From a virus (taxonomy: Duplodnaviria > Caudoviricetes): DNA of 50,248 bases. Positions 14,958 to 49,453 of the stretch are shown here, piece after piece (the first letter of the stretch is position 1; each line of letters begins with the position of its first letter). Location: IMG/VR virus record IMGVR_UViG_3300026320_000003, positions 1 to 50,248 of that record; one strand, given 5' to 3'. Position numbers and translations under genes: made by a program. The notes beneath the pieces are model-generated. The model was given only the letters and a program-made list of their open reading frames with translations, searched no databases and was not told the DNA's origin.

Positions 14958-15151
14958 GTAAGGACACCCTAGACGAGTATGGCTCCGACTCCTACGTCGG
15001 TCAGGCTCCACGTGCTACCAACGGTGGCCACTGTGAGCCAAAGCCAATCCCGTACTCCCCACCTAAGGGCCCAACCAACATTGGCGATCCCAAATCGCCC
15101 GGCCTCCATGGAACCAACCACGGCTGCTGCGGAACCCAAGGGAGACATTAA
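14954..15151 (+). CDS. Small protein ending HGCCGTQGRH
   Basis: GGAGG RBS and ATGA overlap. Confidence 0.65.
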   Translation: MSKDTLDEYGSDSYVGQAPRATNGGHCEPKPIPYSPPKGPTNIGDPKSPGLHGTNHGCCGTQGRH

Positions 15152-15152
15152 G

Positions 15153-15446
15153 ATGCAAGGAATCGGTTGGGCTGTTAAACAGATGCAAGATGGGCATGCT
15201 GTTAGACGTAGTGGTTGGAACGGCAAAGGTATGTTTATATGCCTAATGCCCGAACTGCAATTGCCGCCATTCAATACACAGGATACAAATCGAAAGGTAA
15301 ATGATCGTACAGCTAAATGGATTGGTGAAGATCAATCCTTGAATTGTCGCCCGTACATTGCAATGTACAATGCACAAAAGGAATGGCAACCTGGATGGTT
15401 ATGCTCCCAAGCTGATCTTTTAGCTACTGATTGGGAACTTGTGTAA
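15153..15446 (+). CDS. DUF2829 / Tad2-like protein (putative anti-Thoeris sponge)
   Basis: AVKQMQDGHAVRRSGWNGKGMFI...PYIAM...GWLCSQADLLATDWELV. Confidence 0.8.
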   Translation: MQGIGWAVKQMQDGHAVRRSGWNGKGMFICLMPELQLPPFNTQDTNRKVNDRTAKWIGEDQSLNCRPYIAMYNAQKEWQPGWLCSQADLLATDWELV

Positions 15447-20329: not shown

Positions 20330-22087
20330 TTGGCCCAAGTCCCCTATACTGGTGTTCCATCCCAAACTCTACAGGACATCCCCACTCCTGAGATGCAGCC
20401 GCGTGTTCCTTCGGCTGCCTTCGGCGGTGAGGTAGCACAAGCTATCTCTGGATTAGGTCATACAGTAGCTGGTGCTGGCGATGAAATCTTTGCTAGGGCT
20501 GTCGCCTTACAGAATCTCCAAAACGAAGCTGAGGCTACTGAGGCTGACGCTAAGTACATGCAGGCTGCTGGTGATCTTCATGCCGAATTCAATGCCAAGC
20601 AAGGGAAGGAACGGGTTGATGCGTATCCTAAGTACAAACAGGATTTAGATACAGCTAGGCAAAGTATTCGTGGTGGCCTATCTTCGCCTATGTCCCAGAA
20701 GATGTTCGATCGATCATCTCTATCCACTATGGGCCGATCGATCTTCAATGGTGCCGGTGTAGCTGCCGAAGGTCAACGACAGTATGTTATTCAATCGGCT
20801 GTATCTCAATCAAAGCTAGATGCCAACACCGTCTCTGAAAACCCAGATGATCCAAATACCTTCCAAGATAAGCTTCAACAAGCAAGAAAGAATGCCATCA
20901 CTATATCAGCAGCCAAGGGCAATCCAGAAGGCAGTCCGCAAGAACAATTGGAGATCAAGAATGCTGTAAGCAATCTCTATTATAGTAAAATCGATGGTAA
21001 GGCCAACAAGGATCCCTACACTGCTAGCAAATGGCTAACGAAGTATAGAACCGAACTAAACGATGAGGACTTGCCTAAGCTTGAGCTTAAGGTTAGAAAC
21101 CAAGCTCGGGCTATTGACGCCCAGAATATCGCCAATGAAATTTACAATGAAGGCAAGGCTGGGCCAGGCAAGCCTGGAAAGTCTGCTGTTGAGATGGAAG
21201 AAGCAGCAAACGCTAGGGCCAAAGAGCATGATCCTGATGATCCAGTCTTAGCTCAACATACTCGTGCTGCGGTGCAGAATTTAGTTAGCCGGAACAGGTA
21301 CAATGAAGCTCAGGAGGATCACGCCAATACTTCAATCATCAATCGAAAGATCGTTGGCGGGGTGGCGAGTGAGCAAGAACTCAGGGCCGATCCTGTAGCT
21401 GCTAAGGCTGCGGATGACTTGATCGCCAGTGGTAAGAAGCTCAATCTTGGTGCTGAGATTAACAACTATAACACCGCTCGTGATCGCAAAGACAATATGG
21501 AGCGTTTCAATACCATTATGGGTTCGGCTAATAATGATGTTGAAAGCTTCCTTAATTACAATCCTCGTGCCGACCAGAAGCTTAGTCAGAGCCAAATTAA
21601 CTCCGTGATCGCCAAGCAGGAGCAGTTCAAGAAACAAATCGCTCAAGACCCAAGGGTCGATCGCGCCATGAGCTGGCTTCGCACTGGCAAGTCAGCTGAA
21701 ATGGGGGAGAGTGGCCTTAATCTTATGCATCGAAAAGGCCACGAAGATGACTACGACCGTTTGACTGGAGCAGTTCAATCTTCTCTGGATATTTGGATAG
21801 AGAATCATAATAAACCGCCTAGCAATAAGGAGTTCCTCGAACAGATCGCTCCGCAGCTACTTCAAGAACATGCTGCGCCAGGAACCTTTGGTTATCTCTT
21901 TGGTGGCACTAAAGAACCATTCTTCAAACCGGATACTAGCACTAAGGATTATATAAACTTCGCCAAGAGTGAAAAGCAGAAGGCTTTGGATAGCAGCCGT
22001 GCAGAACCAACTGACGCACAACTTGACCGGGCCTATACTCGTGTTCAACTACTTAGACTCTATCCCGGAAAGGCTACTGGGAAATGA
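20330..22087 (+). CDS. Internal virion (ejection) protein, gp15-like
   Basis: 585 aa helical protein, TTG start after GGAG; synteny. Confidence 0.68.
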   Translation: MAQVPYTGVPSQTLQDIPTPEMQPRVPSAAFGGEVAQAISGLGHTVAGAGDEIFARAVALQNLQNEAEATEADAKYMQAAGDLHAEFNAKQGKERVDAYPKYKQDLDTARQSIRGGLSSPMSQKMFDRSSLSTMGRSIFNGAGVAAEGQRQYVIQSAVSQSKLDANTVSENPDDPNTFQDKLQQARKNAITISAAKGNPEGSPQEQLEIKNAVSNLYYSKIDGKANKDPYTASKWLTKYRTELNDEDLPKLELKVRNQARAIDAQNIANEIYNEGKAGPGKPGKSAVEMEEAANARAKEHDPDDPVLAQHTRAAVQNLVSRNRYNEAQEDHANTSIINRKIVGGVASEQELRADPVAAKAADDLIASGKKLNLGAEINNYNTARDRKDNMERFNTIMGSANNDVESFLNYNPRADQKLSQSQINSVIAKQEQFKKQIAQDPRVDRAMSWLRTGKSAEMGESGLNLMHRKGHEDDYDRLTGAVQSSLDIWIENHNKPPSNKEFLEQIAPQLLQEHAAPGTFGYLFGGTKEPFFKPDTSTKDYINFAKSEKQKALDSSRAEPTDAQLDRAYTRVQLLRLYPGKATGK

Positions 22088-25000
22088 GTAACACCGACTT
22101 CGACGAGGACTTTGATCCAACTAGCTATATAGCTCGACAGCAACAAGCTTCGAGAATGTATGCACTTGGATCGCTGGCTGACGATCCAGAAAAGGCTGCT
22201 AGGGCAGTAGAATTAGGTGATGCTACTGGCGATAAGCCTGCGTTGATTTATGGAAATTTAGAGAATTACGAAGAACAACACAAGGCTGCGTTGACTGCAT
22301 CTCTACTTAATTCAAACAAGTATCTCCGTGAGTACGTCGATGCTGATCCTATGCATGCCAAAATCTCTAACGATGACTACGGCAACCTCGATTCGCTTAG
22401 CGAATCTGTCCAAAAGCTATCTCTATCCCGTCCTGGCTATGCACCAGATGCTATAAGTGGAGCCCTTGCAGTTTTCAGTAGCTCTATTGCTGGAGGGGCC
22501 ATTACCGGCTTCAAGCGTGGATGGGCTAATGTCACCGACCCAAAGCATGTAACTGATGAAGACCTTAAGAACTATCCGCTCTTTACAGCCTTGATGCAAT
22601 CGGCTAGGTTCCCAGTCGATGTCGGTGGGGCATTACTTGAAGCAGGCATTGAAGCTATACATGCTGGAGCTAAGACTGGATACAAGCAGATCACTGGCGA
22701 TGAGATGGGGGCTGAAAGGTTCTCTCGTGATATCGCTGGTATGGCTGAGACAGTTCTTACCAATACCTCAGGCTATCATGGCATCCATGCACCTTCGCCT
22801 GCCCAGTTAGAAAAGGTCCATGGCATCCTCGACAAGGCCAAACCTTGGCTCGACGACTCCAAAGAACCCCCTCGTGGACTTGATCCTGAGATTGACAAAC
22901 TCAAGTTCGAACAAAACAAACTCGACCTGGACAATCTCGATGAAGCCCTTAAAGCTGCCCAAAGCTCTGCTACTCGTGAACGGTCGCCGGAGATTTTTGC
23001 TTCTTTCATTCGCCAGCATACTGATGCTAGTATTGGCATTTCTGGTGATGCTGTGGCTAAGCTTTATGGAGACAAGGTCCCCGAGGCCGGGGATAATATT
23101 CTTGGATGGTCCCCCAGGATTGCTGAGGAAATTCGAACCGCTGTAGCGACTGGTGGGGATGTACAAATTCCGTTGGCCGACTGGCTGGCGAAGGTTGATC
23201 CAGAGGTGGAGAAAGCGCTTCATGATGATATCCGGGTTAGGCCGGGAGGGATTACTAAGAATGAGCAAGAAATTGCAAAGGACTATATCGAAGGTGGGTA
23301 TAAGCCGGCCGAGATCATTCCTGAACCTGCCGACTTAGATGCACGTATAGACGCATTGTCAGAAGAACGCAATTCGCTTAATACTGAGGAATATCAAGGT
23401 GTTCCTAATACAAAGGTTGCTAAGGAGAATGTAGAATTAGCTAGGGCTTTAGAAACAGCACGTGCTGTTGGATTTAATCATGAACAAGCTATGGAATCTG
23501 CTAAATGGGCACTTGAAAATGGCCGTCCTGATATTGCACAAGTCCTAGTTGATCGTGCAGCCAAGCGAGCAGGAAAGCCTGCTAATGTTCCTGGCTTACC
23601 AGAAGGACATCCTAGATACGAGCAGGCTAAGGCACGCATTGCGGAATTAAAGGCAGAAGAACAAACTCAACTTAGTGAGATTAAGGCTGCTACTAAATTA
23701 GAATCTACTGAGGGTGCTATTCCTAAGCCCCCCGAAATCATCCCCGAACCTCTCCCCTCCGTTCGAGGCGCCAGTGGCCTTGAGCCGATGTTCTCCCAAG
23801 GCGATCGGAAGTTGACGCTGGAGAAACGGCCGCCAAGAGAGAAGGCACATGGCTTTTCCTTAGGCCCTGATGCATCGATTCCAGCCGATGAATTTAAGTT
23901 AATTGACGAAAACGGCAAGAACGCTGGCTGGCTAGAAGTAGTTCCATTCGATGGTGGTAAACGTCTATATGTAGACAACGTCGGTGGGTATGAGTCTAAG
24001 GGTTATGGCCCCAATGCCTTCGGTCCAGCCCTCACTCGGGATATCGCCCGCCAACTTAAGGAAGCCTATCCAGAAGCTACCCATATCGGCGGCTTCCGTA
24101 TCTCTGGAGCTAGAGAAAAGGCCGGGACGACTAGGGAGATTTGGATTAAGTTTGACGAGCTTGAAGGATCCAAGGGTGGGCTTTCACGAGGTTGGCTTCA
24201 TGAGATATTGAATCCTACTCAAACCTTTGATATAGGCAAAGCAGGCATCCTTCACTACAGTCCTGAGTTTGCACCGCATCAGGCCGAGGCTGATAAGATA
24301 ATCCGAGCTACCTTAGCCAGGATCGCTCCTGATGCACAGGTCTTTACCCCTAGTCATATTGAAGTCCCAGGTAAGCCCTTCGCTGTTCGTGGCGGCTTTA
24401 TGCTGCCAATGCTTAAGCAGAATCCTTGGATCGTTGTTGCACTAGATGCTGCTGATGCCCTCGGTGTAGCTCGTCATGAGGCAGTTCATTATCTTAAGCA
24501 GTTTGGGTTCTTCTCAGAGAAGGAATGGTTTAATCTAACTCGAGCAGCAAGGGATAATGACTGGATTAAGAAGTTTAGAATTGATGAGCGATACCCCGAC
24601 CTCGATATGCCAAGCAAGCTCGAAGAGGCGATCGCCGAGGGCTATCGAAATTGGGCTCGTGGTGAGGAAGTCCCATCACATCTCCACCCGATCTTCGAAC
24701 GATTGAAAGAACTCTTTGAATCCCTCAAATCTCAGCTTAAAGAACTCCTTGGCCGTGAGCCTACTTGGGAAGAACTCTTCCAGAAGATGGACACTGGCGA
24801 AGTTGGAGCGAGGAAGCCTAGGGGACATGAAGGTGGGGCGTTCCTTGAACCCAAGATGATGGAGGAACCAGAAAAGATAGTAGGTGCAACATTTACTATT
24901 GAAGGTCGTACTTTCACTGGAGCTAACCATGTCGAAGCAATGGAAAAGGCTAATAAAGAACTTGGAAGTGATGTGGTTGCCAACACATTCAGTAAATTGA

Positions 25001-28000
25001 TTTCTGCTGGTACACGGCGTGATGCAGATGGCTTTATGACTTCTACCGGCCGTGTAGTATCTCGCGATGAGGCAACAAAGATTAGTGAAGCGGCCGAGCA
25101 AGGAACTGCTGCACATCCGTCAGGGACATTAAAGGCCGAGGATATTGAGCCAAAGTTCTCCGTCGAAGACAAGCCCATGTTCGACAAGGCCGCTGCGGTT
25201 GGTATGACAGCGGATCAGTTCAAACGCTATATGAAGCTCATCGATCAACGCCACACCGAAGACCTAGCAGCAGCCCAGGCTCGAGCCGAAGCCGAACAGG
25301 GCAAGCGTCTCACCAAAGAATGGAAAGACAACGAGAAGCAAGTCCGTCAAGACGTTTCAGAGTCCATCCGCAATCGCCCAGACGTGGCTGCCGATCTCTT
25401 CTTTGGTGCTGGGGAACTCTATGGAAGTAAAATCGATGGTCGATTCAAGATTGGTGAGAAGTACCTGTCTCCAGAACAAAAGGCCAAGTTGCCTAGAAGC
25501 TACGTTTCTAAATCAGGCATTAACCCTGATGACTTTGCTGGTGAGTTCGGTTATAGTTCCGGCGACGCTATGATAGACCGGCTTGGCGAATATAATGAGG
25601 CCAAGCTCCAAGCTGGCATGTCTACCAAGGATTATGTCAAACGAGTCACCGATCTTGAAGTCGATCGCCAAATGCAAATCAAATACGGCTCGCTTGAGAA
25701 GTCCGTTCTCGAAGAAGCTCAGGACCAAGCAACCTCTGAAACCCAGGTCAATATCCTTCATGAGGAGACCTTAGCGCTAGCCTTGAGAAACAATGCCGAA
25801 GGTAGCATTTCCAAAGACGAGATCAGGTCTTGGGTCAAGCAAGAGTTCGCCAATAAGCCGATTGGCTCCATCTCCTTCGATTCCTACATGACCGCCATGG
25901 GCAAAGCTGGCCGGGCAGCCGAAGATGCTTTACTTAAAGGGGACTTCGCTGAGGCCTTCCGAGCGAAGCAACAGCAGTACGTCGGTATGCTCTATGCTCG
26001 CGAAGCCAAGCAGCTAGAGAAGGCCCGAACCCAATTCGACAAGTTCGCCAAACGCTACAACGTCCGTACGATAAAAGACCAGCCAGCCGAACGTCAAGCT
26101 TGGACTGATGCGATCCATGGTATCTTGCAACAGGTTGAGTTACCAACTGGTGGAAGGGATAGCGCCGAAGTTCTTGGGTCCCTATCAAAAGCTGGCTACA
26201 AGGACATAGCCAGCTTTATCCAAGCCAAGGAATTTCCCCAAGGCCTTGAAGGTCAGAGGCAGGCTATAATCCCCGTCGCCAATTTCCTCCTTGATGGCTC
26301 ATTCAAGAAGCCTTTGGATCAAGTCACCGCAGCTGAGTTTAAGGCTATTCACGATTCGGTTAAGACCTTAGATCACCAAGCCAAAGCAGAGTCCAAAGTA
26401 ATCAAGGGTGGCGAGAAGGCCGATCGTGAAGAGACGATGGATCAGTTGGTGAACCAAATCGAACAGCGGGCACCATCTAAAGAACTTCGAGTAGACCTGC
26501 TTCCGTCGAAGAATTACATGAAGCATTACCTTGCTTCTAGTATAAACCTAGAAACCATCTTCGATACCATTGACCGAAATAACCCAAGGGGATTGATGAA
26601 CCAAACCATCGTTCGCACCTTCACCGAACCGGCCAACGAAGAACGAGCCTTGTGGAATAAATTCGGTGATCGAATCAACGCTCTACCTAAAATCAAAAGC
26701 GCCAACAAACTCGTAGACAATCCCTTCTTCAAGGACCCCCGCACTGGCGAGTTAATGATATTCTCTCGACGGAATGTTCTCACCGTTCTACAGAATATGG
26801 GTAATCCAGGAAACTTCTACGGCCTGCTTCGTGGGTATGGCATCAAGGACGCAATGGCCCCGGCAGTGAAGGATTGGGTTTGGCGGAATGTAGACAAGGA
26901 AGATGTCCAACGTGCTAAGATGCTTGGTAGTATACTTGAGGATTCCAAACACGACCATGCCGACCCTATGTATCGCTATATGACTGGGATCGAACCGCCA
27001 GAGATAGACCTCTGGACGGTCGATGCGCCAGCAACTCATGGTGGCCCTATCGAAGGTTGGTACCATCCCATTATCTACGACCTAAACATGCCGCAAAAGA
27101 GTGCAAAGCTCGCTGGGCAGAATGTTATCGAGCAGCCTTATTACGTCAAGCGCACTCCAACCTCTGGATACACTCAGGTTCGTACTGGCTATACCGGCCC
27201 CTACTCCTTACAACTGGATGGAGTTCAGACTCGTCTTGGTCAAGTCATCCACGATGCCGTTTGGCGACCAGCGTTGGATCAACTGACCAAGATTTTCATG
27301 GACCAAAGATTTCAAACCGCTATGCAAAAGCATTGGGGGAAGGAATACGCAGATCAACTTGAACCATTTCTTCGATCCATCGCCGGGACCGGCGAGTTCA
27401 CTAGTGAATCCCAAGCTGTGGTTTTACATGCTATTCAATTCGTCAGGACTAATATGCTTAGCCACTTGGTTGGATTGAATCCTTCAACCTTCGCCAAGCA
27501 TACATTTACAGCTGCTGTTAATAGTATCACCCAAGTCGGCCTTAGAAACTATGCTGATGCTCAAGCAGCTATGTTCGCGCGTAATCCGGCGACCGGTGAG
27601 ACTAATTGGACATGGCACATTAACGATAGTGAAGAACTTCAAGGTAGACATCGGCACTTTATCGACACCGTTCGTGGAAGCTTCGAAGCCACCTATGGTC
27701 ATCTTGCGGCGGCTAATGATATGAAAAGCTTCTTAGATAACTTCGAAGGGCGGTCATTGAAGGAAGGTGTCCGGGCCGCTGCTTCTGATGTTAAAGCCAA
27801 GTATCTATCGATCCGTGAAGCTCTGATGTACATCGAATCTGCACCCTTAGCCTACGGTGATCTATTCACTGCTGTGCCTACTCGGTACGCAGCATACGAA
27901 AAGGCTATAGCCGAAGGAGCCGATCGAGGCCAAGCCAAGTTCGAAGCCGATCGTGCTGTGCGTATGGCGCATGGGTCTACGGCTTTAACAAACCGACCAC

Positions 28001-44231: not shown

Positions 44232-44312
44232 TCACTCCAGAATGAGGAATAGGTAAACACCAGCGATTACTGCAACGTAGACAGCGCAGAGGATTGGCAA
44301 ATAGGCATACAT
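44232..44312 (-). CDS. 26-aa hydrophobic peptide
   Basis: AGGAG RBS; MYAYLPILCAVYVAVIAGVYLFLILE*. Confidence 0.5.
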   Translation of the reverse strand: MYAYLPILCAVYVAVIAGVYLFLILE

Positions 44313-44324
44313 TGGCTTGCTCCT

Positions 44325-44364
44325 ATAAAAATGCCCCAAGGGAGGCTTGAGTTCCCTTGGGGCA
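44325..44364 (-). terminator. Rho-independent terminator
   Basis: TGCCCCAAGGGA-loop-TCCCTTGGGGCA followed by TTTTT. Confidence 0.85.
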
Positions 44365-44372
44365 GAATGGGA

Positions 44373-45119
44373 TTAGAAACCAGAGGCTCGTTCATTCTTT
44401 CGATTATACCACTGGTACCATTCGTGAGACCAGCGGAGTTCAGGCTCGGGTTCGACATCGGCTTGGGTAGGCTCAGAGGGGGCAGATGGAGTATCCACGC
44501 TTTCGGCAGTAGAAGCAACGGGAGACGTAGAGGCCTCTGATGATATTGCAGGAGGAGGGCTTTCACTCTGACCCTGTGGTGCATCGGCAGGCTCGAAGTT
44601 ATCAGGATTATTGAAGTCCCCTGTGGCTGTATCCTGCTGATAGATTACAGGATTAACCTGCTCTGGCTCAGAGGGAATAGCCTGTGGTAGCTCAGGCACC
44701 GGCTCAATAGCCTTAGGATACCAAGCATCAGTAGCAAAGTCATAGTCAAGCCCTTCTCGATTAGGCTCCGGCGCCTTAACCGGTTCAGGCTTGGATGGAT
44801 TAAGCAAGGACATAGCAGCAGCAGCCGCTACCTCAGCCTGCTTAATGAAAGACAAAGCCGTGTGGGCCAAATCCTCACTCTCCAAAACACGAAAGCTTGC
44901 TTCATCACGCTCTACCTCCAGAGAGCGGACCGTGGCTTGAAGGTCGTCAATCTGTTTCTTGTAGGAGATAATATTGATCTCAAGATAGGCGTTATGATCT
45001 TGAGTTGCGCCGAGTTGGGTCTTAAGAGCCTCGATCTGATCTTGCAAGACCGGGTTCTCTTCCATGGCTTTCGCCATTGCCACGAGATCGTGGACAAAGT
45101 TCGCAACGTGGGGTGACAT
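44373..45119 (-). CDS. Coiled-coil protein with disordered acidic/Pro-rich C-terminus
   Basis: GGAG RBS; 248 aa. Confidence 0.75.
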   Translation of the reverse strand: MSPHVANFVHDLVAMAKAMEENPVLQDQIEALKTQLGATQDHNAYLEINIISYKKQIDDLQATVRSLEVERDEASFRVLESEDLAHTALSFIKQAEVAAAAAMSLLNPSKPEPVKAPEPNREGLDYDFATDAWYPKAIEPVPELPQAIPSEPEQVNPVIYQQDTATGDFNNPDNFEPADAPQGQSESPPPAISSEASTSPVASTAESVDTPSAPSEPTQADVEPEPELRWSHEWYQWYNRKNERASGF

Positions 45120-45182
45120 TGAACTACTCCGTTCTAGTGAAGGCTTATTCCTTCACTCTGTGAAAAGAGGCGAGGATATCGG

Positions 45183-45412
45183 GGACATTTGTTGCTGTTT
45201 ACAGCGATTGGCTATAAGCTGCTACAGGCTCATGCGTCCTGTTACGCACTTACGGCTATAGCCGTCCTTTGCTACCCTCGTTTGGGTCTACTGGACCCGG
45301 AGACTTGGACCTAGTGTATCCTGAGATTGTGTGGGGAAGATCGGGCTGCCGCCCATGTTATGGGCAACGCACTTACGGCCTTCTTCGTTCCCGTTCTCAT
45401 TGCTACACTAGG
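45183..45412 (-). ncRNA. Candidate two-domain structured RNA
   Basis: Nested stems, with motif GCCGTAAGTGCGT-hairpin-RGCAGC present twice. Confidence 0.5.
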
Positions 45413-45448
45413 GTAGAGGTATTGGTAGGGGCCAAGAGGCCCTCAACC

Positions 45449-46069
45449 TTAGTGAGCCGTGGCGGACACTCCCGCCTTTGGCTTCGCTCGCGGTGCGACC
45501 TTCCCCGCCTGAGTCTTAGACAGGGTGGACTTCTTCTTAGCATTGGCTTCGGCTGCTTTCGCAACCAGCTTCGGGCTTTCCTTAATCAAGGACTTGATAA
45601 GGTCAACCTTTACAGGCACCTTAGCACGTTCCTCAAGGTTAGCCTTGGCTTGTTCGACAATGCTTGGATCTTGCGCAAGCATTTCATTAGCCGCAGCGGT
45701 GATTTCCTTAGGCTCGACATGGGATATCTTCATCCCTGCCGCCTTGATCCCGTCTTTAACGAGGTTCTTGGCAAGCCGTCGGGCTTCGGTCATGACCGCA
45801 GCACTTTCGCCTGTCTTGGCCTTTTTGGCGAGGAAACGGATTTTCCCCGTCATAATTGCTTCGACATTCTTCTCAGCTTGAGCCATCGCTAGGGATGCAA
45901 GTTCTTCCGCATCCTTCGTGCTGGCTTTGGTAATCTTGCTCATACCACGATTAGCAAGTTCTTTAAGGCCGAGAAGCAAGGCCTCAGCGTAAACTTCCTC
46001 TGGAAGGTCATCGGTTTGAAACTTAACCGTGTCCTTACCTTTCGTGATAGGAACCGTGAGTTCAGCCAT
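45449..46069 (-). CDS. Lys/Ala-rich basic protein (possible nucleoid/DNA-binding)
   Basis: AGGTGA RBS; basic C-terminal tail. Confidence 0.75.
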   Translation of the reverse strand: MAELTVPITKGKDTVKFQTDDLPEEVYAEALLLGLKELANRGMSKITKASTKDAEELASLAMAQAEKNVEAIMTGKIRFLAKKAKTGESAAVMTEARRLAKNLVKDGIKAAGMKISHVEPKEITAAANEMLAQDPSIVEQAKANLEERAKVPVKVDLIKSLIKESPKLVAKAAEANAKKKSTLSKTQAGKVAPRAKPKAGVSATAH

Positions 46070-46250
46070 TAGTTTCACCTTTCGCTGTACTCTTATTAAC
46101 CGGATAGGCGCAAGGTGAGTTAGCGATAGTCATAGGGGAATGAGGGAGTCTTTATGTCCGCGTTGGGCTACCTAGAGGTAGCGCTTCGCTTACAATACTC
46201 GATCAGATAACTCCTCGTATCCTCGCCTTCTGGCTTTGGTCCGGGTGTGC

Positions 46251-46637
46251 AGGGATTGCACAGGTGAGAGGGCGGGTTGGAGTTAGTTTAGTTCCTTTGT
46301 CTTTTGTTGCTCTATCACTTCAGCAACATGCATCAAAATGCTGTATACATCCTCGTTAGATATTCCAGTATTTGATTTGAATTGATGAAACATCTCAACT
46401 AGCTGCTCAGCCATATCTTCTTTAACCTTGGCTATATAGCCACTGATCCAGGCTATGGCTTCGTTTTCTGATGTGGTGTGGTGAACAATTTCACCACTAA
46501 ACGAAACAGTCCATTTACTGTCTTGACCTTCAACGCGGTAACTCTGTTTAATCATTGGCTTGCCCTCCTTATTGCCGATAAGGTCTAAGTGTATTCGCAT
46601 AGCTTGGCTCCTATGCCCTCTCGCCGATGCAATCCCT
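46251..46637. repeat. Inverted arms A (46251-46273 / 46615-46637) enclosing one gene
   Basis: 23 bp, 3 mismatches. Confidence 0.8.
46283..46600 (-). CDS. Early hypothetical protein
   Basis: AGGAG RBS; a second in-frame RBS/ATG lies near 46555. Confidence 0.65.
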   Translation of the reverse strand: MRIHLDLIGNKEGKPMIKQSYRVEGQDSKWTVSFSGEIVHHTTSENEAIAWISGYIAKVKEDMAEQLVEMFHQFKSNTGISNEDVYSILMHVAEVIEQQKTKELN

Positions 46638-46694
46638 AATCATCTGCTCGTTAGGACATACCAAGGCTTGGTATGTCCCTTTGGTTACGGCCTG

Positions 46695-46871
46695 TTAAAA
46701 CTTCGCCGGGTATCCCTCAGCATATGGCACAATACTCATTACCACGCTTGTGCAATTAGGATACTGTTCAAGAATACGCGACATAGCTGCGTCAAGACTA
46801 GCTTCTTTGGGGAGATTGTAATCATACTCAGCTTGATCAGAGTTAACTGAGACCCAAATAGCATATTTCAT
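46695..46871 (-). CDS. Early hypothetical protein
   Basis: AGGAG RBS before MKYAIW. Confidence 0.55.
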   Translation of the reverse strand: MKYAIWVSVNSDQAEYDYNLPKEASLDAAMSRILEQYPNCTSVVMSIVPYAEGYPAKF

Positions 46872-46888
46872 TCCCTTCTCCTTTGAGT

Positions 46889-47104
46889 TTATACGCTGTG
46901 TATGTTCCATTCCCTTGCCACACTTGCAGCAGCGTCATAAGCATCTTTTAATGCCTTAGCTGCAAAGTTAAAGGCTTGATCTTCGCTTGGGAATGTCACG
47001 TTGGGCCAGTACTTACAATCAGCCCCACAACGTATAGCCGGATGATATGGACCTAAGCCATAACTTGAGGCAATGGTCCTAAACTCAATCCTGATTTCAT
47101 CCAT
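46889..47104 (-). CDS. Early hypothetical protein
   Basis: GAAGGA RBS before MDEIRIEF. Confidence 0.6.
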   Translation of the reverse strand: MDEIRIEFRTIASSYGLGPYHPAIRCGADCKYWPNVTFPSEDQAFNFAAKALKDAYDAAASVAREWNIHSV

Positions 47105-47147
47105 AGTCCTTCCCCTTAGGGCGATATGCCCTAATGAGCAGATGATC

Positions 47148-47287
47148 GGACTAGCTTTCACTGGGACATATCATTGCTGATATGTCCCTTTAGGCTTACG
47201 TCGGCCTAAGTGCTATAAAATCATACGGTGTAAGTCGTTTTCATGCTTTTCTCCATTAGGGCGATATGCCCCAGTGAAGGCTGGTCC
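47148..47287. repeat. Inverted arms C (47148-47172 / 47263-47287) enclosing a minigene
   Basis: 25 bp, 3 mismatches. Confidence 0.85.
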
Positions 47288-47421
47288 TAGACGCGGCTAA
47301 TCTGCCTTACGCCTTGTAGTATGTAGAGTGTTGATTACTAAGCATGACCCTGGCCATGCAACCGCCACTCATTGTCAAACAGCCCGGGTATGGTCCCGTC
47401 ACCTAGGGATGATATTGGTCC

Positions 47422-47583
47422 CTAACCATGTTTGGCAATACGCTTATCGTGCCATTCCTGTTCACTCACCTGCTTATGCTCGTCCTTATCTGACACTCTA
47501 GGCCAGTGAGGATTGCAAATCCCGATATGCTCGACAAGATGGCGCTTTAGACTAAACTTATGTCCACACTTACAGTAGAACAT
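47422..47583 (-). CDS. Small C2H2/C2HC-like zinc-finger protein
   Basis: MFYCKCGHKFSLKRHLVEHIGIC. Confidence 0.6.
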   Translation of the reverse strand: MFYCKCGHKFSLKRHLVEHIGICNPHWPRVSDKDEHKQVSEQEWHDKRIAKHG

Positions 47584-47631
47584 AGCCTTCGCCTTTCGTA
47601 AGGTTAGCTTGGCGTGTTGCAAGCCTAACCA

Positions 47632-47799
47632 TTAGTTATGAATAGCATATTCCCTAAGGCGATGGTGTAACGCCTCAAGCCTGCGATAGTAAGCTGTAGC
47701 CTCTGGGAAGCTATTCCCTTCCAGATCGACACAGAGTTCATTCTGTGCATCGATGATCGCTTGGGTTAGGTCTAATACCTCTTGGATAGTGAAGTCCAT
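47632..47799 (-). CDS. Early hypothetical protein, 55 aa, not in the ORF track
   Basis: GGAG RBS; MDFTIQEVLDLTQAII... Confidence 0.6.
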   Translation of the reverse strand: MDFTIQEVLDLTQAIIDAQNELCVDLEGNSFPEATAYYRRLEALHHRLREYAIHN

Positions 47800-47830
47800 A
47801 GCCTATCTCCAGCATTTCGCATCATGGCCA

Positions 47831-47839
47831 ATTATACCA
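47831..47839 (-). promoter_or_regulatory. Extended -10 promoter
   Basis: TGGTATAAT about 30 nt before ATG 47799; no clear -35. Confidence 0.6.
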
Positions 47840-47910
47840 CGAACAAATCGCGAACGCGATCACGATATTGTGAATTCCGTTCACGAATTCGTGATGCGCT
47901 GTGATAATCC

Positions 47911-48150
47911 CTACTGCCTAATCAGCTTATCTATCAAGCTAATCTTCGGCGTTGCCATCTCTTGCCATCTTGGCTCAATATCATCAAGCTTATGCTGACA
48001 ATCCTGACACATATACAACCTCGTCTCCCATTGCCTGTCGCTCCCACGCTTTGCCTCGAACTGGGGCTTACATAGCAATACCCAAACATTCCCTGACTGT
48101 ATCAATGCATGCCAGTGCAATTTGTTATTCTTACTCCGGCCTACTATCAT
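47911..48150 (-). CDS. Early Cys/His-containing protein
   Basis: GAGG/AGGA RBS; H...C...CQDC. Confidence 0.6.
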   Translation of the reverse strand: MIVGRSKNNKLHWHALIQSGNVWVLLCKPQFEAKRGSDRQWETRLYMCQDCQHKLDDIEPRWQEMATPKISLIDKLIRQ

Positions 48151-48177
48151 GGTCCTACCTCTCTCAATTCTATCCCT

Positions 48178-48206
48178 ATTATAGCACAATCCGCTGGTGA
48201 TATCAA
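48178..48206 (-). promoter_or_regulatory. Sigma70 early promoter
   Basis: TTGATA-17 nt-TATAAT with extended -10 TG. Confidence 0.8.
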
Positions 48207-48611
48207 CAACGTTTTCCAACTATCTTCGGTCTTCACCCCGTTCCCTTATCCTCCTCCTTATCCCTATCCCTATCCCCCCCTTATAGCCTTATTCCGGATC
48301 ATATGGCGTCTGTGTCCCTCCCTACCCCTTCCTGTCCTATTGGTGATATATATATAGATGGTATAGGAAGGGAAGGCAACAGGGTGGCAGGTACAGGAAG
48401 GGACTCGGAATGAGGTGGGCAGCCAGACACGGCTTATGTTTGAAGATAAGGCTATAAGAGGAATATAAGGATAGGGATAAGGTAGAGGATTAGAGAATTG
48501 TTGGCGACCGGACATTATCATCACGATTTTGTGATTTGCGTTGATGGTCGAGATGTGAGACCTTGGCGATGTGGCCAGCGCATTCCGCGCAAATGGCCCA
48601 AAGGAGCGAAG

Positions 48612-49051: not shown

Positions 49052-49453
49052 GTGGGAAGTGATTTGATTGTGGAAGGATTCTTTGAGGTATCGTCGATCC
49101 TGCGGAGTGGGGTGTATGTCCTCGTTCATAAGGGAGTTGTCATCTATGTTGGGAAGAGCAAGGGAATGCTTTCACGAATCTATGCGCATAAATCCATGTG
49201 GGGTCAGAAGGCACGGGGCAAGGTTCCTGATTGGCTACCGATCAAAGGCATCCTCTTTGACGAGGTCTTTGTTAGGCCTTGTCCGGTCGATCTTCTCGAC
49301 GAACTCGAACTGGAAATGATCAATCTCTACAAGCCAAAGTTCAACACCAGACTTAAGTCCCCAGGGGCCACCGATCGGCCCTTTAGCGTTGTGGTAAACG
49401 GAGTAACCTTGGCCTTTAATGCTAAGCCAGCCCCAATCGAAAGGCGAATCTAA
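49052..49453 (+). CDS. GIY-YIG nuclease family protein ending IERRI
   Basis: SGVYVL..VIYVGKS...RIYAH...ELEMINLYKPKFN. Confidence 0.85.
   Translation: MGSDLIVEGFFEVSSILRSGVYVLVHKGVVIYVGKSKGMLSRIYAHKSMWGQKARGKVPDWLPIKGILFDEVFVRPCPVDLLDELELEMINLYKPKFNTRLKSPGATDRPFSVVVNGVTLAFNAKPAPIERRI

Follow-up and report, generated by a model that had tools for sequence, protein, structure and literature searches.

Phage early regions hold small genes that change fast, many of which probably serve host takeover or anti-defence, and this raises the question of how early genes can be added without upsetting the operon that receives them. The present analysis concerns positions 46251 to 47287 of the virus record IMGVR_UViG_3300026320_000003 (Duplodnaviria; Caudoviricetes), which represents an uncultured soil phage. 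The record, complete at 50,248 bp and bounded by direct terminal repeats, was analyzed over its whole length and is here termed the window. On the minus strand of this segment lie three consecutive slots, here designated A, B and C, each bounded by the two halves (arms) of its own long inverted repeat and each able to hold small open reading frames (ORFs) as cargo. Comparison with related loci indicates that the pairing of the arms is under selection and that the arms constitute conserved slots with rapidly changing cargo, a finding that is both real and non-trivial. The rule that it offers is that a gene sits inside its own orthogonal long-range helix, that empty helices persist as hairpins and that exchange takes place at the arms. 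To explain the arrangement we propose a mechanism, to which we give an even chance, in which RNA helices of about two turns set each cassette of the early transcript apart as a loop and probably undergo cleavage by host RNase III, with the linkers between cassettes doubling as recombination joints.

A sequence-only reading of this DNA had described three back-to-back cassettes whose arms are complementary within each cassette and different between cassettes, a description that is borne out here, the relatives included. A repeat search and direct reading of the letters place the arm pairs where that reading had put them (Table 1). The repeat search returned 23 nucleotides (nt) at 87% for pair A, 22 nt at 91% for pair B, which direct reading extends to 24 nt with three mismatches, and 25 nt at 88% for pair C, and successive pairs are indeed separated by single bases. 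A scan of the whole window for inverted repeats 20 to 1500 nt apart yielded seven pairs, among which A, B and C have the top three scores; at a score of at least 14, where three pairs are observed, all of them abutting, the average over 60 first-order Markov shuffles of the window was 0.1 pairs per genome. Because the top three scores belong to pairs that abut through single-base spacers, chance is an untenable explanation. Each arm pair is present as a single copy in the genome, and minimum free energy (MFE) folds of 46200-47340, computed for either strand, retain all three long-range helices. The further claim that each pair brackets a ribosome-binding site and complete ORFs stands for A (one product of 105 amino acids, aa) and for B (71 and 58 aa), and fails for C, which contains only a Shine-Dalgarno (SD) sequence and a mini-ORF of 7-11 codons. 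In the window, and in those slots of relatives whose sequence was inspected, the arms lie outside the cargo ORFs and the SD falls just within the 5' arm. The ORFs of the slot region are all co-oriented, with promoter-like matches upstream, and no promoter-like or terminator-like match is present on the coding strand within 46251-47287. As the genes lie on the minus strand behind sigma-70-like promoter matches, each cassette would be looped out of one transcript, along which the slots follow in the order C, B, A. Slots B and C possess alternative pairings as well, in that the inner 5' arm can pair instead with the bases just after it (hairpin hp1, before the SD) and the inner 3' arm with the bases just before it (hairpin hp2); these two hairpins are the only direct repeats between B and C. 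In slot C, forcing the full 25-nt arms to pair costs only 3 kcal/mol (-51.2 versus -54.2 for the MFE).

Relatives were found through the gene for a 205/209-aa protein that adjoins the slots. The protein belongs to no Pfam or PHROG family and is absent from cultured phages, which gave no tblastn match to the 209-aa protein and no nucleotide match to 45100-48500. The search gathered 80 loci (designated by L numbers), 56 from viral contigs and 24 from metagenome contigs, and the latter include a close clade in which the 209-aa protein is 74-94% identical. The sequence-only reading had advised looking in related phages for conserved arms, different cargo and covariation, and these loci provide all three. 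In the close clade every slot junction (13 of 13) measures exactly 1 nt, and the loops closed by B-type arms comprise 464 (window), 203, 231, 329, 330, 533, 8 and 8 nt, those of C-type arms 90 (window), 229, 232, 256 and approximately 250 nt. Loops of A-type arms comprise 24, 24, 29, 36, 37, 81, 93, 170, 211, 213, 246, 279, 280, 341 (window) and 359 nt. C-type arms are absent from L070, L073/74, L085, L068, L076 and L077; of these, L070 is without slot C, and L068 and L076 are without B as well as C. The two 8-nt loops belong to the empty B slots of L065 and L075, each of which is a perfect 17-bp hairpin devoid of cargo. Besides this empty state slot B has five different contents, and the sense ORFs of 28 slots fall into 13 families. 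One family, a protein of 51-54 aa, occupies the B slot of L085, A-type slots in L027 and L033, and other outer arms in L038, and arms and cargo are thus seen, in these comparisons, to evolve independently. BLAST of the window region against ten close relatives confines homology to the linkers (arms and adjacent hairpins), the leader of the 209-aa gene and an occasional cargo. The operon strand carries the longest ORF in the majority of filled slots; the exceptions, B of L067, A of L076 and B of L085, have an equally long ORF on the opposite strand, and in all three the ORF having relatives is the operon-strand one. A putative cargo link between slot A of L067 and slot C of L071 failed at the nucleotide level and was not used. 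As a minor observation, the loops of two near-empty A slots, 36 nt in L071 (2201-2236) and 24 nt in L065 (3383-3406), differ by extra GGCAAA units.

The architecture extends beyond the close clade. Distant relatives (L007, L009, L033, L036, L038, L050 and L087) carry gene-bracketing stems with other arm sequences, arranged in tandem and nearly abutting, and in L007 arms of 21 nt with a single mismatch span 1013 nt and 4-5 ORFs. Two slot designs are apparent among these relatives. The A-type design combines a sequence-conserved stem base (GGGATTGCA / TGCAATCCC) with fixed mid-stem positions that are not Watson-Crick pairs and an inner half that covaries freely; such stems number 32 (30 distinct) in the 80 loci, many of which include little upstream sequence. 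The B/C-type design has variable outer arms around a conserved inner motif, YTAGGGC / GYCCTAR, and also occurs in L009 and L038. A scan of viral contigs for the 16-nt inner motif common to B and C found three loci, none of them BLAST-related to the window. Among the 58 non-redundant loci that include 700 nt or more of upstream sequence, strong inverted repeats reach a density of 0.63 per kb in the last 1 kb ahead of the anchor gene versus 0.095 per kb elsewhere; at this threshold 25 of the 58 loci have at least one strong inverted repeat, and in 17 the loop is at least 150 nt. The 3' flank of distant A stems bears a weak likeness to the boxA of rrn operons; the motif is absent in the clade of the window and the resemblance was discarded.

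Selection on the pairing can be read most directly from the A stems. RNAalifold, applied to 17 aligned short-loop A hairpins, predicts 18 pairs, 10 of which have changed on both sides, and 97.7% of the cells are paired versus 80.0% in shuffles, none of 500 reaching the observed value; the covariation score is 0.506 versus 0.154 after shuffling, and slid controls are 34-55% paired. For the 30 distinct A stems, 88.6% of the cells are paired, versus 31-46% in slid controls. In a similar vein, compensatory double changes occur twice in the B arms of close relatives, and the window itself holds an A.C intermediate. Watson-Crick pairing amounts to 94.6% in the 13 filled A stems, whose arms lie 170-505 nt apart and comprise 11 different inner sequences, versus 90.0% in the 17 with loops below 100 nt; such equal pairing at long spans implies that the arms do not decay once a gene sits between them. 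Arm length is 19-25 nt in 29 of 30 stems, with a median of 23. The middle of the A stem is occupied by a T.G pair in 23 of 30 stems, followed by a pyrimidine-pyrimidine pair in 25 of 30, both kept over deep divergence, and G.T mismatches are likewise fixed at position 18 of B and position 19 of C. The three conserved mismatches are G.U wobbles as read on the coding strand, and the persistence of fixed mismatches argues that the arms have not simply been homogenized by DNA copying or template switching.

Variation at the DNA level respects the same boundaries. We compared the contigs of four soil DNA runs with 44300-48600 of the window. In one run (X1) a contig of 2834 nt is identical to the window over all three cassettes, and a second one agrees with it up to 47145, beyond which follow 30 bases that correspond to 47288-47317 at 27/30. 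The latter is a co-occurring diverged strain without cassette C and both its arms (missing 47146/7-47287). In another run (X3) one contig shows no difference from the window over 45958-46274 and departs from it where the A arm has its inner edge. A second skips the cargo by fusing position 46662 directly to 47099, at the inner edges of the two B arms; this last case is weak, since it consists of one contig, at a depth of 3.3 and with 39 nt on one side. Both in these contigs and in the BLAST comparison with ten relatives, indel and replacement breakpoints coincide with a conserved motif, as in the shuffling of promoter-early stem-loops (PeSLs) considered below. The sequence-only reading had offered DNA-level exchange or inversion as its alternative, and had suggested checking reads for deleted or inverted cassettes. 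Exchange is upheld in a different sense, with cargo gained, lost and replaced through breakpoints at the arms and with a variant that lacks cassette C; inversion is not, no strand-changing joint being present in the contigs of the four runs. A Pfam scan of the 65 ORFs of the window detected no invertase, integrase, transposase, RNase III, RNA ligase or RNA polymerase. An invertible segment of the Hin/Gin type was rejected on these grounds, the lack of an invertase and of a strand-changing joint, and on the strand of the cargo ORFs given above. The Sak4-like annealing protein and the nuclease encoded in the window could support exchange at short homologies.

Between the two levels, a function in RNA appears better supported than one in DNA, short of proof. 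The points in its favor are complementarity over hundreds of bases, arms that flank the cargo ORFs, uniform arm length and fixed mismatches that read as G.U, and pairing kept over long spans is natural for RNA and not for duplex DNA. In the mechanism that we propose, host RNA polymerase, invoked because no phage polymerase was found, would transcribe the leftward early operon from the minus strand as one RNA. This RNA would fold in vivo into a row of slots, each closed by a long-range helix of 19-25 bp (median 23) made of a 5' arm just before the SD and a 3' arm just after the stop codon, with neighboring helices abutting one base apart and each looping out zero to five small ORFs. RNase III would then cut in the stems and split the polycistronic transcript into separate cassette messages. 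By analogy with known substrates, processing of the RNase III type is the most likely function, since a helix of about two turns is a standard RNase III substrate; helices of at least 20 bp are generally cut in bacteria, 16S and 23S rRNA are excised from their precursor by RNase III at long-range flanking stems, and the RNase III sites of T7 have internal loops at a place comparable to the mid-stem mismatch of A. After the cut, the ends of B and C would refold into terminal hairpins, hp1 at the 5' end and hp2 at the 3' end, and these would protect the message; terminal hairpins stabilize bacterial mRNAs. The linkers, of about 50-80 nt (hp2, 3' arm, 1 nt, 5' arm, hp1 and SD), would supply short homologies for recombination. 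Since only the loop interior and the slot borders can be changed without breaking a helix, and the linkers are homologous, cargo would be exchanged exactly at the arms, and an emptied slot would collapse to a plain hairpin. The circular mRNAs that had also been suggested are not supported, as neither an RNA ligase (65 window ORFs) nor a ribozyme (Rfam) was found.

Several observations weigh against RNase III processing of a looped transcript. The MFE structures of B and C form only the outer 11-15 bp together with hp1 and hp2, which is short for RNase III; the RNase III itself, which would be that of the host, is assumed; and none of the 8 runs listed as containing the stretch is an RNA run. 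Mismatches of the G.U type outnumber those of the A.C type by 29 to 16 in 30 stems (p=0.07), an excess that traces largely to one inherited position, and duplex energy favors the sense strand in 35 and the antisense strand in 26 of 64 arm pairs (p=0.31); the G.U excess of 18:2 in well-paired A positions, and of 10:2 in the 17-sequence alignment, counts related sequences. The earlier judgement that G-U bias does not decide between RNA and DNA thus still holds after formal tests. Furthermore, the presence or absence of whole slots among relatives and contig variants reflects DNA-level events, the 8-nt apices of the two empty B hairpins (L065 3317-3358 and L075 830-871) are exact reverse complements, and CCTAA stands at both ends of the B cargo in filled slots, a feature found within slot B only. 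These features bring forward cassette capture at the DNA level, an explanation that we deem unlikely and that would have SD-ORF cargo inserted, in a structure-directed manner, at the apex of an ancestral intergenic DNA hairpin by a host enzyme, by palindrome-tip breakage and repair or by a recombinase; the arms would then be split halves, and their complementarity a by-product possibly maintained by template switching. Capture would account for the perfect empty hairpins and for the flipped apex, for the resemblance of filled B and C to a hairpin whose apex has been duplicated on either side of the cargo (hp1, hp2 and, in B, CCTAA), for the co-occurrence, within single soil samples, of variants with and without a slot or its cargo that break no more than 1-2 nt from an arm edge, for very high turnover beside a gene that is 74-94% identical, and for the lack of significance in the strand tests. 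It has to contend with the lack of integrase, transposase or invertase among the 65 window ORFs scanned, with arm pairs that are unique instead of dispersed copies, with pairing as good in the 13 filled stems as in empty ones and with fixed mismatches that argue against simple homogenization, and we know of no mechanism that inserts genes into hairpin apices. Moreover, the facts on filled and empty B slots fit two routes, namely hairpin insertion with apex duplication and deletion between the direct repeats that arise from alternative pairings, so that the empty form could equally come from the latter. A bolder combination of capture and processing, which we consider decidedly improbable, is that the tandem hairpins act as a phage "gene dock", an integron-like capture without integrase whose split arms go on as an RNA processing stem. 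Here a process directed by structure and not by sequence would open the apex of an intergenic hairpin, install an SD-ORF module and duplicate the apex into hp1 and hp2, and a captured gene would be expressed at once as its own end-protected message, coupling acquisition to expression in phage early operons. An integron cassette array proper (attC) was rejected, there being no integrase among the 65 ORFs and the arms bracketing genes in place of a hairpin after each; the B hairpin is attC-like in that GTTAGG/CCTAAC resemble integron core motifs, in reversed order, at the inner stem and in slot B only, and this likeness was also set aside.

The covariation and the architecture would all fit equally well with RNA helices that are not processed and serve instead to insulate cassettes, to clamp their ends against exonucleases or RNase E, or to join stop and start codons for ribosome re-use. 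The short outer stem left by the MFE in B and C, together with hp1 and hp2, agrees with this explanation, as would mid-stem mismatches of A acting as anti-determinants, and the accessible text of PMC3868564 describes pairing between the 5' and 3' untranslated regions (UTRs) that controls translation of a single bacterial mRNA, icaR. The same text, on the other hand, presents the icaR pairing as itself an RNase III substrate. The tight arm length suggests a measuring reader such as RNase III, and the general cutting of helices of at least 20 bp in bacteria points the same way, so that we regard helices without processing as rather unlikely. Least probable, and in our opinion very much so, are non-autonomous mobile elements with terminal inverted repeats (miniature inverted-repeat transposable elements, or Correia-like elements), lying side by side by chance and some of them bearing passenger genes. 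Cassette C does have the appearance of such an element, at 140 bp with 25-nt terminal inverted repeats, no real gene and a presence/absence polymorphism that includes both arms, and the Correia elements covered by the accessible text of PMC2649163 are co-transcribed and bound or cut by RNase III. Nevertheless, the genome holds no further copy of any arm pair, the 16-nt inner motif has only three unrelated viral matches, the ends differ from pair to pair so that no single transposase could serve all, the flanks of A, B and C show no target-site duplication outside the arms, and the slots are positionally conserved across relatives.

Among known systems, the nearest functional models for the proposed RNase III processing of the slots are rRNA-operon stems and long-range RNase III sites in mRNA, and the nearest evolutionary model is PeSL shuffling in T4-type phages. 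The rrn stems resemble the slots in pairing over hundreds of bases, to some 20 bp or more, around a unit, with several units per transcript, and the T7 early sites in that a phage early polycistronic RNA is cut into single messages. In contrast to both, what is looped out here is a small protein-coding cassette, only one base separates a helix from the next, each helix has its own orthogonal sequence, and cutting is a proposal; the T7 sites, moreover, are local hairpins between genes. In the accessible text of PMC11780869, RNase III of Bacillus subtilis cuts, on both strands, mRNA duplexes that measure 10-36 bp and bring together segments as much as 505 nt apart, dimensions akin to the arms of 19-25 nt and loops of 8-1013 nt reported here; unlike these slots, the sites described there are scattered single sites in cellular mRNAs, with no tandem array around exchangeable phage genes. 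PeSLs, according to the accessible text of PMC2839356 and PMC4122927, are small conserved motifs between the non-essential early ORFs of hyperplastic regions, and they resemble the present arms in being regulatory motifs that serve as joints of insertion, deletion and replacement. They differ in that a PeSL, as characterized there, is a direct repeat of promoter plus terminator stem-loop at many sites, whereas here each cargo is flanked by the two halves of an inverted repeat specific to it and has no promoter match, and hp1 and hp2 are the only parts common to B and C. Correia elements of Neisseria (PMC2649163, accessible text) are also short, with inverted-repeat ends, and their size class fits cassette C; unlike the slots, they are described as dispersed, in many copies with the same ends, whereas each of the present arm pairs is found once, at a position conserved among relatives, and genes are enclosed by two of the three. 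Finally, in icaR of Staphylococcus aureus (PMC3868564, accessible text) the two ends of an mRNA likewise pair, with the difference that pairing of the 3' UTR occupies the SD region and thereby blocks translation, whereas here the SD lies free in the loop.

No published report of phage arrays in which stems bracket genes emerged from a full-text literature search. Should the helices prove to be RNase III sites, they would convert one early transcript into insulated single-gene messages in the manner of an rRNA operon, and would thus amount to a natural design for modular, context-independent expression. The coordinates of the features discussed, together with those of the promoter-like matches and the anchor gene, are given in Table 1.

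Table 1. Features of the slot region and its surroundings, in transcript order from the leftward promoter-like matches (window coordinates)
Feature	Position	Strand	Remarks
Best sigma-70-like promoter match of the leftward early operon, 11/12, extended -10	48178..48206	-	Consensus match only
Sigma-70-like promoter match TTGCCA-18-TATCAT	47409..47438	-	Upstream of slots; consensus match only
Slot C 5' arm (on transcript), 25 nt	47263..47287	-	Same arm type in L065, L067, L071, L075
Slot C hp1, local hairpin GGGC-ATATC-GCCC	47259..47271	-	Competes for inner part of 5' arm; used in MFE
Slot C mini-ORF, 7-11 codons, with SD	47221..47256	-	Remnant cargo; relatives have 60-69-aa ORFs in C slot
Slot C hp2, local hairpin GGGACATATC-loop-GATATGTCCC	47163..47188	-	Overlaps inner 3' arm
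Slot C 3' arm	47148..47172	-	Repeat search and whole-genome inverted-repeat scan
Single-base spacer, C/B	47147	-	Read from sequence
Slot B 5' arm, 22-24 nt	47123..47146	-	Same arm in L065, L067, L070, L071, L073/74, L075, L085
Slot B hp1, TTAGGGC-ATATC-GCCCTAA	47116..47134	-	Equals top of empty B hairpin of L075
Slot B cargo gene 1, 71 aa	46889..47104	-	No Pfam/PHROG family; relatives in L010, L051
Slot B cargo gene 2, 58 aa, SD AAGGAG	46695..46871	-	No family; same family in B slots of L067, L073
Slot B hp2, 11-bp local hairpin	46654..46678	-	Overlaps inner 3' arm
Slot B 3' arm	46639..46662	-	Repeat search and whole-genome inverted-repeat scan
Single-base spacer, B/A	46638	-	Read from sequence
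Slot A 5' arm, AGGGATTGCA... type	46615..46637	-	Conserved stem base
Slot A cargo gene, 105 aa, with SD	46283..46600	-	No Pfam/PHROG family
Slot A 3' arm, ...GTGCAATCCCT	46251..46273	-	Repeat search; A-stem alignment
Small alternative hairpin GTGCA-ATCCC-TGCAC	46247..46261	-	Outer 3' arm of A plus flank; conserved in both clades
Lys/Ala-rich gene, 205/209 aa	45449..46066	-	Directly downstream of slots; anchor for finding relatives

The 105-aa cargo of slot A has no relative among the viral contigs searched. Either side of the 209-aa gene lie ORF-poor stretches without Rfam match, one of 330 nt downstream of the gene (45120-45448) and one of 170 nt that forms the leader between slot A and the gene start (46079-46250) and is about 67-78% conserved in close relatives. 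No Rfam family matches at gathering thresholds, and a search for tRNA and tmRNA returned nothing. The slots belong to a set of replication and early genes that occupies the minus strand from about 31 to 48.2 kb and includes a split family-A DNA polymerase, a UvrD-like helicase, the Sak4-like annealing protein and a PD-(D/E)XK nuclease, whereas structural and lysis genes (terminase, portal, GP7-type capsid, tail and GH108 lysozyme) lie on the plus strand. The capsid protein, at about 55% identity to those of epsilon15/phiV10-like podophages, gave the sole cultured-phage match reported. Eight soil-metagenome DNA runs contain the stretch or part of it, and three of the eight hold at least half of the sampled words. 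In a search for a clue to the host, the conserved 16-nt 3' motif of A gave at least 120 matches in genome contigs, approximately the chance expectation, and none of the 80 fetched carries the 209-aa gene or a paired 5' arm.

The remaining observations concern the surroundings of the early operon and more distant parts of the window. In the divergent intergenic region (48241-48497) that separates the leftward early operon from the rightward genes, a 74-nt imperfect inverted repeat, 74% complementary and with its halves 109 nt apart, is composed of short iteron-like repeats (CCTTATCC, CCCTATCC). Counterpart repeat-rich inverted pairs occupy the same relative position in L003 (944-1169), L009 (3066-3281), L065 (2246-2512) and other loci, and the region is possibly an origin or an operator. 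Beside it, a 133-aa ORF (49052-49453, plus strand) scores 22.6 bits, precisely the Pfam cut-off, for a GIY-YIG nuclease domain, has a weak PHROG endonuclease match and may encode a free-standing homing-type endonuclease. The family-A DNA polymerase (32024-34665, minus strand) is divided between two ORFs with a 4-nt overlap, the upstream one bearing a UDG-superfamily domain and a 3'-5' exonuclease and the downstream one the polymerase domain. On the plus strand, a 2210-aa protein (22084-28716) bears an LPD22 (large polyvalent protein-associated) domain at its N terminus and also matches PHROG 9880; it probably serves as an internal or ejection protein. On the same strand, a 155-aa ORF in the structural module (14979-15446) contains a Pfam Tad2-like (Thoeris anti-defence 2-like) domain (E 2.9e-22).

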